A DNA stretch of 64,000 bases from positions 672,001-736,000 of the forward strand of contig OY970209.1 of NCBI GenBank assembly GCA_963713855.1. The letters run 5' to 3'. The first letter of the stretch is position 1, and each line of letters opens with the position of its first letter. Source of the DNA: an uncultured bacterium. GTDB lineage: Bacteria > Babelota > Babeliae > Babelales > Babelaceae. Position numbers: made by a program. Below, piece by piece: positions 15,001-17,059 of this stretch.

Positions 15001-17059
15001 TGTGTAGTCATATATCTTTGTTGCGTAAAGCAGATCGCTCGCAGTGGCTTATAAAACAGCGCAGAGATTCATCAATAAACGGACAGTTTATATGTGTAAC
15101 GGAAACGCTTGGTGGTAGTATGGCCGAGTTTTTAGGTATTCCGTGCAATAAAGTAAAACTTGTTCCCGCTCATAGTTGTACGAAATATAAGAAATACAAA
15201 AACTATCCTGCGACTTTGCATAATTTTTTACCGGGAAAAATGGCCTGTTATAAACGCGTTAATATTTACCAACCAGTTGGCAAGCGGTGCCGTAATTTTT
15301 GTGGTATGAGTGACGATGTGGTTAAAAATATGTCACAGCATCCAACCTTGCCGCTTATTGTCGCTTTGGACACCTTTATGGGGGGCACGGATCGCGGTTG
15401 CGCAAATGTAATGTACGACGAAAAAACAAACACATATTATGGAATCGATTTTGGTTCTGGCTTTAGTGCGAATTTAGCTGGCATAGCTCTTGAAAATATG
15501 AAACTCATAGAGAGAATGCTCGTCTTTACTCCTGCGCATATTGAGGGACTTACCATTTACCGTAATGCCTTAAAGCGCTTGGTAAATTGGTATAAGCCGA
15601 GTGTTGTGTATGCAAGGCTTGAAAGCCTCGCTCACGAGGCTGGCCTTTTTGCAAAAACGAGCTTCTACACTAAAAATAAGGCAAAGCTTAAAGAAAAGCT
15701 TTCTAGATCTAAAAAATATATCTATGAAAGTTACGCTTCAACGGTGGCCCTCATTCGTTACCTCGATCAAAAGATACCTCAATGGAATGCAAAAGCTAAT
15801 CAACTGCCGAAAGCTTGATCATGCAAGGGGCATGGTCTACGATGTGTACGCTTTTAGGAAGCGCAAAATGTTCCCTTTTTAACGTAACTGATTGAGTGCC
15901 ATGTTTAAGGCCTTTGCCCGGAATATAAATTGTTTTCTGTTTTCTGGTAAGTGATCGTAATGAACGGCGTAGCCCTCTAAGTGTTAGATTGATTTCTTTT
16001 GGGGCATCCTCAAGAGTTTGGTTTTTACTAAGTTCAATTGATACCTCAAACGGGTATATTGCTTCTACAAGATAGCGGTCGCTCCATAGGGACCAGAGTA
16101 TGTATGCAATAATGCAGGCAGCTACGTAAGAAACACTCTTGCTTTCAAGGGCTATAGTATGCTTCATGCCAAGTCCTTTGCACTTTCTTTACCTCTTTCT
16201 GAATATGCGTAGACATTTAACTGCCGAGGCAAGACAAGATAACGTTTTATAAGAGCACATGTGTGCGATGCAGTCAAACCTTCAATGATTTTTCCTTGAA
16301 CGATGCACGAAAATAGTCGTGTTTGTGGCGATAGCGAAAGGACAAAGGCATCTGTTTCTTGGGTTAATATAAGTGCTTTTTTTTGCCATGTGCACAAAGT
16401 TTCTCCACTTGTATCTTTGTACACCCTATTCAAAATGGGATCTGCATTGAACGCCTTTATGCTTCCATTCTTTGTAATCCATACAAAATCGGTATCCTGT
16501 TTTGCGTCGATGATCATCTTAACGAGCTCGCTGTGCATTTGTGCATTAAGAAGATACGCGGGGACGAGGATTTTTTGTAAAGTGTCGTCCCGTTCGATTA
16601 TAAAAGGTATTTCTTTTTGCTTTGCAACGCCATATAGTGAAGCTCTAACGAGTTCGTCGACCCAAAGATAATGGACCGGATAGGGCGGTTTAAGTCTCTT
16701 TGCGCCAAGAGGGTAATTTTGAAGCGTTTGATGATGCGTCATGATGAGTATCATAATGACAACGGGGCTGCCCCATAAAAGAAGTGAGCTTACTACATAA
16801 AGCTGTGTATAGTACGTTATTCCTGTAAGAAAAGCGTAGGCGTAGAAGCTTTTAAGTGGGCGGTAGCTTGTGTCGTGCCGAAGCCAGCTTATAAAATAGT
16901 TGATAAGGTACCAGAGAATACTTATTTCTACAACGTCCTGCCACGCGTAGATGTGCAAAGTATCACGTAGAATGGTCATTAATATTTGTACCACGGTTAC
17001 CTTTCCTTTAGAAAAACTACTATACTAGAGATGTCTAGCTATATGAAAGATTTGGGTAA

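Follow-up and report, generated by a model that had tools for sequence, protein, structure and literature searches.

Two unannotated reading frames on the minus strand of a Babelota genome raise the question of why a bacterium would keep a pair resembling the membrane-bound c-di-AMP synthase CdaA and its regulator CdaR when the catalytic motifs are gone. The genome, from an uncultured member of the Babelaceae, consists of one contig of 1.52 Mb and is 91% complete; its group comprises bacteria with a life inside protists. The window, i.e. the whole 64,000-nucleotide stretch analysed (contig OY970209.1, positions 672,001 to 736,000), carries the features collected in Table 1, where the two genes are referred to as cdaA* and cdaR*. 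The stop of cdaA* and the start of cdaR* share a 4-base overlap (ATGA), and a purine-rich stretch resembling a ribosome site is found 5' of the cdaA* start. In relatives, the ancestral gene order is trpS, cdaA*, cdaR*, glmM and DUF502. Among public relatives, 3 of the 10 clusters looked up bear a label that names Candidatus Babeliales or Dependentiae and calls the protein hypothetical.

Table 1 Features of the locus, in window positions
Feature	Position	Strand	Basis or remark
cdaA* (CdaA descendant, 276 aa, GTG start)	16164..16994	-	ORF, profiles and fold
cdaR* (CdaR descendant, 123 aa)	15796..16167	-	ORF, profile and fold matches
DTDFV, cdaA* codons 167-171, place of the HDGA motif	16482..16496	-	Alignment; HDGA aligns to DTDF
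CTWQKKA, cdaA* codons 201-207, place of GTRHRAA	16374..16394	-	Alignment
trpS, divergent upstream neighbour, context outside the system	17084..18106	+	Marks the ancestral locus in many relatives

The larger frame descends from CdaA, as proposed in an earlier note on this DNA. Taken alone, the sequence stays below the Pfam DAC cut-off (21.4 bits against 27) and far below that of the CdaA family TIGR00159 (28.3 bits against 188.8), the latter match spanning residues 18-244 with an E value of 1e-6. A 29-sequence profile retrieves 15 PDB sequences, 14 of them named diadenylate cyclase/CdaA and one of CdaS type, which reproduces the count given in the note. With 73 sequences, the profile finds 16 PDB sequences, all DAC proteins; the best is the full-length CdaA of L. 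lactis (E 2e-16), aligned over residues 30-287 of 9g69. The structural model (mean pLDDT 81.5) shows three N-terminal helical segments (16-39, 46-62 and 66-93). The protein is thus laid out as membrane helices plus an amphipathic helix (about 16-96), a linker and a DAC-fold domain (about 103-256). Hydropathy is strong for the third helix only, and Pfam CdaA_N is matched in 10/29 family members. The DAC-fold domain of the model superimposes on CdaA structures with Z scores of 15-18. For B. subtilis CdaA (9g0g), the DAC domain gives Z 18.3 and an rmsd of 2.8 Å over 149 residues, and numbering is collinear, residues 102-255 lying on residues 102-255. The best Foldseek matches are all of CdaA type (E 3e-10). 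At least 70% conservation is reached at 38 sites of the family, of which the membrane and amphipathic module holds 21 and the DAC domain the other 17. The copy studied here sits on a long branch of the family tree and keeps 31 of these 38 sites (median 33). In L. lactis CdaA, the membrane helices are described as the tetramer interface, followed by a conserved amphipathic stretch (PMC11686323).

The smaller frame is a CdaR descendant, an identity that had previously rested on position and size. A 26-sequence profile matches Listeria Lmo2119 (E 2e-7) and a second YbbR structure (2e-3), and Pfam YbbR is matched by 9 of these 26 members, the source copy not being among them. The model (pLDDT 89) shows one membrane helix (10-29) and one YbbR domain that ends at the C-terminus. 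Its best fold matches are YbbR proteins, and in the atlas it corresponds to YbbR clusters at 0.95-0.96. Aligned lengths range from 106 to 145 aa (71 sequences), which leaves space for one YbbR domain and no long disordered part. Trp25 is invariant in all 71 sequences.

We then carried out a census of the catalytic motifs on 238 aligned rows (85 genome loci and 153 sequences from protein searches), 233 of which are distinct. His170, Thr202, Ser222 and Glu224 are canonical catalytic-site positions of CdaA, with Ser222 and Glu224 on the metal side. At the DGA site, His170 is found in 8/233 sequences, Asp171 in 35/230, Gly172 in 4/231 and Ala173 in 6/231. At the GTRHR site, Gly201 is found in 0/229, Thr202 (T or S) in 50/229, Arg203 in 4/230, His204 (H or N) in 13/232 and Arg205 (R or K) in 7/232. 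At the SEE site, where the source copy reads SPQ, the counts are 44/233 for Ser222, 3/233 for Glu223 and 49/228 for Glu224. Overall, 95 sequences keep none of the ten canonical catalytic-site residues, 102 keep one, 29 keep two and 7 keep three; the loss of DGA and RHR, first seen in 12 of 12 homologues, therefore holds throughout the larger set. Allowing for register shifts, a DG pair occurs within ten residues of the site in 3 of the 238 rows. One locus (L033) reads SEE but has neither DGA nor RHR. Asp171 and Glu224 occur together in 4/233 sequences, so that no acidic metal ligand is conserved. Variability is as high in the DGA loop as in the linker, which ranks this loop with the most variable stretches of the family (3.4 bits, against some 2.0-2.3 for core strands and membrane helices). 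Since DGA and RHR are the ligand-binding motifs of CdaA (PMC8573169; PMC11686323), their loss makes it very probable that the family has zero cyclase activity.

Other residues are conserved that are new to the cdaA* family: Trp111 (222/231), Trp172 (190/233), Asn183 (198/233), Trp186 (174/233), Trp203 (164/230), which stands where CdaA has Arg, and Arg226 (147/233). Trp111, Trp172, Asn183, Trp186 and Arg226 remain conserved in lineages without glmM. The Trp residues among them may do no more than stabilise the fold, which would speak against the docking role proposed below. A quite improbable alternative is that the DAC pocket binds ATP, AMP or another ligand, or supports another reaction, which could be useful to an ATP-importing parasite. 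Asn183, Trp186 and Trp203 do line the old pocket. In addition, adenine is reported to be read by the backbone of Leu188 in CdaA (PMC11066881), so that a Trp at that place need not block it. DAC domains are also described as able to make other nucleotides, those that do so retaining the D/G and G/R core (10.64898/2026.08.10.743927). However, this idea sits poorly with the rarity of the Asp171 and Glu224 combination, with a DGA loop as variable as a linker, and with the absence of Trp186 from the source copy, which has Pro at 186, and from its four closest relatives.

Is the pair maintained as a unit? cdaA* is present in 174 of the 261 genomes of the group, counting 176 profile matches minus two weak ones in family f10 that were dropped as chance. 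Both genes are found in 173 genomes, cdaA* only in one (a 180-contig assembly), cdaR* only in none and neither in 87. The pair is therefore absent from about a third of the genomes, and the statement that it is kept across Babelales was too broad: no pair was found in f7, f9, f10, f11, f12, f15, f16 and f21, which make up 8 of the 21 families. In a quick GlmM tree, a 98% branch sets 11 rows of f7, f10, f12, f15 and f21 apart from the rest, and f9, f11 and f16 can be grouped with them by an NrnA-type gene that they share, so this absence may be a single loss. Further losses occurred inside pair-bearing families (G027, G079, G086, G110, G135, G065 and G068). No remnant of the pair was found beside glmM in the 14 pair-less loci read. 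cdaR* adjoins cdaA* in 78/85 loci; the adjacency first reported for 12 of 12 loci is thus the rule, with an exception in genus g4. There, 10/10 genomes have both genes, and in the 6/6 wider loci read one to about five genes lie between them, both being intact. Amino-acid permease genes have been inserted, on the opposite strand, between cdaA* and cdaR*-glmM in this genus (L135-L140). Adjacency explains much of the joint inheritance, although genus g4 keeps both genes despite their separation. The two proteins may also bind each other in the membrane.

Both genes are under purifying selection. In the two cdaA* pairs that are not saturated (dS < 0.5), dN/dS is 0.04 and 0.08; it is 0.04-0.23 in 21 of the 30 closest pairs, those with estimable dS, many being near saturation and the pairs not independent. 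Values for cdaR* are 0.09-0.31. In a protein library clustered at 50% identity, 360 clusters match the cdaA* profile at E 1e-30. Together with motif loss and with no intact DAC being found in the 261 genomes, these data support the view, already put forward in the earlier note, that the sequences of the pair are maintained as one unit for a role other than making c-di-AMP. One such role would be passive, cdaA* only anchoring, stabilising or positioning a cdaR* that itself acts on wall or division proteins, with the DAC domain kept for folding and oligomer stability. The concentration of 21 of the 38 conserved sites in the membrane module agrees with this. In S. pneumoniae, moreover, CdaA and CdaR are both reported at mid-cell, and CdaR depletion differs from CdaA depletion, from which the authors infer CdaR functions beyond CdaA control (10.64898/2026.09.06.749708). 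Yet constraint on the DAC part equals that on the membrane part and exceeds it in several genus g4 pairs. The DAC domain is also full length in the genome matches listed, except for contig-end fragments, and in the 150 best library matches, which is more than a pure anchor would need. We consider a purely passive cdaA* unlikely.

The rest of the c-di-AMP machinery was searched for in the group. At an E value of 0.01, Pfam DAC is matched in 25/261 genomes, and all 25 places coincide with the cdaA* gene; the same search detected DAC in 11 of 14 known genomes used as a control. No intact DAC was found in the 261 genomes, many of which are incomplete assemblies. This extends the earlier finding for 31 genomes, except that the Pfam cut-off is exceeded once (G203, 30.6 bits), by a cdaA* gene that also lacks the motifs. 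PgpH does not exceed its cut-off in any of 37 genomes sampled. No degrading enzyme of GdpP type was found: the DHH proteins of the 18/18 pair genomes considered are of RecJ size only, and the two checked are RecJ. The c-di-AMP riboswitch RF00379 and mCpol were each found in 0/5 genomes. It thus appears highly improbable that cdaA* is a very divergent but active diadenylate cyclase, or else a slowly decaying relic. KtrAB, a usual c-di-AMP target, does accompany the pair in 151 of its 174 genomes, the pair has been lost several times and the source copy is on a long branch. On the other hand, the motif census and the missing PgpH and GdpP-type enzymes speak against activity. Decay is contradicted by open frames, by the family sites kept in the source copy and by a dN/dS well below 1. 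KtrA itself does not track the pair. It had been suggested as a direct target by 4/5 genomes, and we rejected it on the count over all 261, of which 151 have both, 23 the pair without KtrA, 43 KtrA without the pair and 44 neither. KtrA was not found in families f10 (0/35) and f4 (0/4). Conservation within KtrA is far lower in the C-terminal RCK domain than in the N-terminal one, and its gene belongs to a conserved cluster of glyS, a DedA-like gene, ktrB and ktrA (L148; G000:C1:1308500-1310240).

A short NrnA-type DHH-DHHA1 protein (L152:3037-3999) occurs in 11/11 genomes of the pair-less families and in 0/25 of the pair-bearing families. The source genome has an Orn-like gene (C1:425492-426085) and no NrnA-type gene. 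NrnA was considered as a complement to the pair and rejected: because 7 of these 25 NrnA-less genomes also lack the pair, and because of the Orn-like gene here, it is better regarded as a clade marker. The NrnA and Orn pattern looks like a clade-wide swap of nanoRNase.

The gene that follows the pair in most loci encodes the phosphoglucosamine mutase GlmM. CdaA is reported to bind GlmM in four Bacillota species (PMC10117814), and the earlier note suggested that the pair works with this enzyme. In that case cdaA* would hold or regulate GlmM at the membrane and so tie wall precursor supply to cdaR*. Of the 85 cdaA* loci, 57 contain the start of glmM, and the gene is intact where present, with its catalytic motifs kept. 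Residues Ala122 and Lys213 also seemed to follow glmM in a first set, Ala122 being kept in 3/17 glmM-less sequences versus 44/67 and Lys213 in 5/16 versus 48/67. But this signal shrank in 18 further glmM-less sequences (8/18 for each residue). Overall, cdaA* matches the consensus at 0.71 in glmM-less lineages versus 0.80. Arg126, described as essential for GlmM binding in B. subtilis CdaA (PMC8573169), is Arg in 14/231 or 4/232 sequences of the family depending on register, and the DYFE patch of GlmM is variable in the group. In S. aureus, DacA was reported to leave GlmM activity unaltered (PMC6368335).

Gene content argues in the same direction. glmM was not found in 43 of the 174 pair genomes, the source genome included; this number is 45 less two genomes (G092 and G212) in which glmM is cut by a contig end. 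In 28 of the 33 glmM-less loci read, cdaR* is directly followed by DUF502, glmM having been cleanly excised; the reading covered all but eight of the 43 genomes, and one locus (L035) is too short to show the next gene. Conversely, 76 genomes have glmM without the pair. On the cdaA* tree, glmM presence requires up to 8 label changes, 2 of them forced by strong branches. The pair is thus independent of GlmM, any contact between cdaA* and GlmM is at most optional, and a membrane tether for this enzyme as the reason for keeping the pair is decidedly improbable. In the source genome, where the mutase gene had rightly been described as no longer adjacent, the single phosphohexomutase is located 290 kb away (G000:C1:979279-980772) and is, judging from its motif, presumably AlgC-like. 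Three glmM-less genomes tested have one phosphohexomutase only and keep GlmU. Loss of glmM, with a single AlgC-like phosphohexomutase kept, is likewise seen in several lineages that have GlmU and full wall genes; this phosphohexomutase may supply glucosamine-1-phosphate.

Two further candidate partners were rejected. GlmR/YvcK is found in 0/36 genomes. Where glmM has been lost, DUF502 comes next after the pair, but in genomes without the pair it lies behind glmM as well, and none was found in the source genome. For S. mutans DacA, many candidate partners beyond GlmM and CdaR are reported (PMC13289029).

Cell-wall genes were also compared with the distribution of the pair. Published genomes of the phylum are reported mostly to keep wall genes (PMC4776705; PMC6561590). 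Class B PBPs are present in 248 of the 261 genomes, including 174/174 pair genomes, and the pair occurs in 0/13 genomes without them. A class A PBP is found in 18/18 pair genomes versus 14/18 pair-less ones, and MreC in 18/18 versus 15/18. The pattern fits an envelope role of the pair, if weakly, since the pair-less clade contains most of the wall-less genomes: families that apparently form one such clade account for 10 of the 13 genomes without PBPs, and the independent cases are one well-assembled genome and two less complete ones. A full set of wall genes without the pair is seen in three single-contig genomes (G027, G086 and G110), so the pair is dispensable. Family f11 (0/6) and part of f9 (3/7) have no class B PBP and keep glmM; they are candidate wall-less lineages. 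In the source genome, the class A PBP gene is found 19 kb from the pair (window 35746-37725, plus strand).

The reading that we favour, tentatively and at slightly less than an even chance, is that the pair forms a non-catalytic inner-membrane envelope complex, working by protein contact with a partner that is not obligately GlmM, KtrA, GlmR or DUF502. In such a complex, cdaA* would still oligomerise through its membrane helices and hold cdaR*, whose single YbbR domain would face the periplasm and the cell wall. The enzyme-dead DAC domain would be kept as a cytoplasmic docking module in which conserved Trp, Asn and Arg residues replace the active site. By direct contact, it could link the periplasmic domain, through its state or position, to a partner in the cytoplasm or the membrane. 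A chemical output would thereby have been exchanged for protein contact, the architecture of the membrane complex being kept. In B. subtilis as well as in L. monocytogenes, CdaR is reported to bind CdaA and has been proposed as a wall sensor (PMC10117814). The B. subtilis protein is said to sense the wall via a disordered region (as cited in 10.64898/2026.09.06.749708). The short cdaR* has no room for this region, which counts against the favoured reading.

How does the pair compare with known systems? Bacillota CdaR proteins have several YbbR domains. cdaR* shares with CdaR/YbbR proteins (Lmo2119, SP_1560, Dhaf_0833) a single membrane helix at the N-terminus, a YbbR domain after it, and a position directly after cdaA; it differs by having one domain, no disordered extension of the kind described in Bacillota (10.64898/2026.09.06.749708) and no active cyclase to regulate. 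With CdaA/DacA (TIGR00159; B. subtilis, L. monocytogenes, S. aureus, and L. lactis PDB 9G69), cdaA* has in common its length, the membrane module with amphipathic helix, the collinear DAC fold and the first place in the cdaA-cdaR-glmM order. In contrast, DGA, GTRHR and SEE are unconserved, Arg126 is missing, Trp111, Trp172, Asn183, Trp186 and Trp203 are new, and no degrading enzyme was found in the genomes tested. The cdaA-cdaR-glmM module, in which GlmM is the CdaA inhibitor, is recognised here from the gene order of most loci and the intact GlmM motifs, whereas glmM and the pair are lost independently and interface residues are unconserved. The defence DACs PanS and DS-2C also have a divergent DAC fold, but they are described as soluble or effector-paired and as keeping the core D/G and G/R residues (10.64898/2026.08.10.743927); in cdaA*, a single-copy membrane gene in a housekeeping locus, these are gone. 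The closest parallel in the c-di-GMP system, degenerate GGDEF/EAL, likewise keeps a second-messenger enzyme fold without catalysis. Those domains have binding or protein-contact roles in cells still making the messenger, whereas no active synthase was found here in the whole group (261 genomes). Judging from its sequences, the family is a pseudo-enzyme variant, CdaA plus CdaR by descent and not CdaA by function. No publication on the family was found among the papers searched; a survey of DAC architectures may mention inactive ones.

It is difficult to disentangle from c-di-AMP what CdaR senses and why CdaA sits in the membrane, since model organisms cannot do without this messenger. The cdaA* family offers a natural experiment, since hundreds of homologues appear to keep the complex without enzyme activity, and the residues that selection retains form a short list. 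A bolder proposal, which we regard as rather unlikely, is that CdaA and CdaR have an ancient function without c-di-AMP, as a transmembrane envelope sensor acting by direct protein contact. Babelota would then have shed the whole messenger system but retained the core, and a docking surface lined by Trp would stand at the old active site. If so, Bacillota pathogens would have the same hidden function, and the cdaA and cdaR phenotypes credited to c-di-AMP would in part be due to it. For annotation, a weak DAC match is no reason to list members of the group among the producers of c-di-AMP.

Finally, the surroundings of the pair deserve mention. The place held by glmM and DUF502 in relatives is occupied by two tandem HipA/PI3-4-kinase-like genes (window 13934-14872 and 14823-15818, plus strand), the second of which shares 23 bases with cdaR* in a tail-to-tail overlap at the cdaR* stop. 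Both have N-terminal hydrophobic leaders, and they are possibly secreted kinases. In another genome (G157), a short fragment resembling the cdaA* N-terminus is found about 0.8 kb upstream of the intact gene (L024:2900-3052, minus strand). Elsewhere in the window, a lactonase-like beta-propeller repeat gene appears split into two overlapping frames (21162-21605 and 21545-23437, plus strand), and repeat genes resembling it are located at about 2255-4204 and 54166-55191, both on the minus strand.
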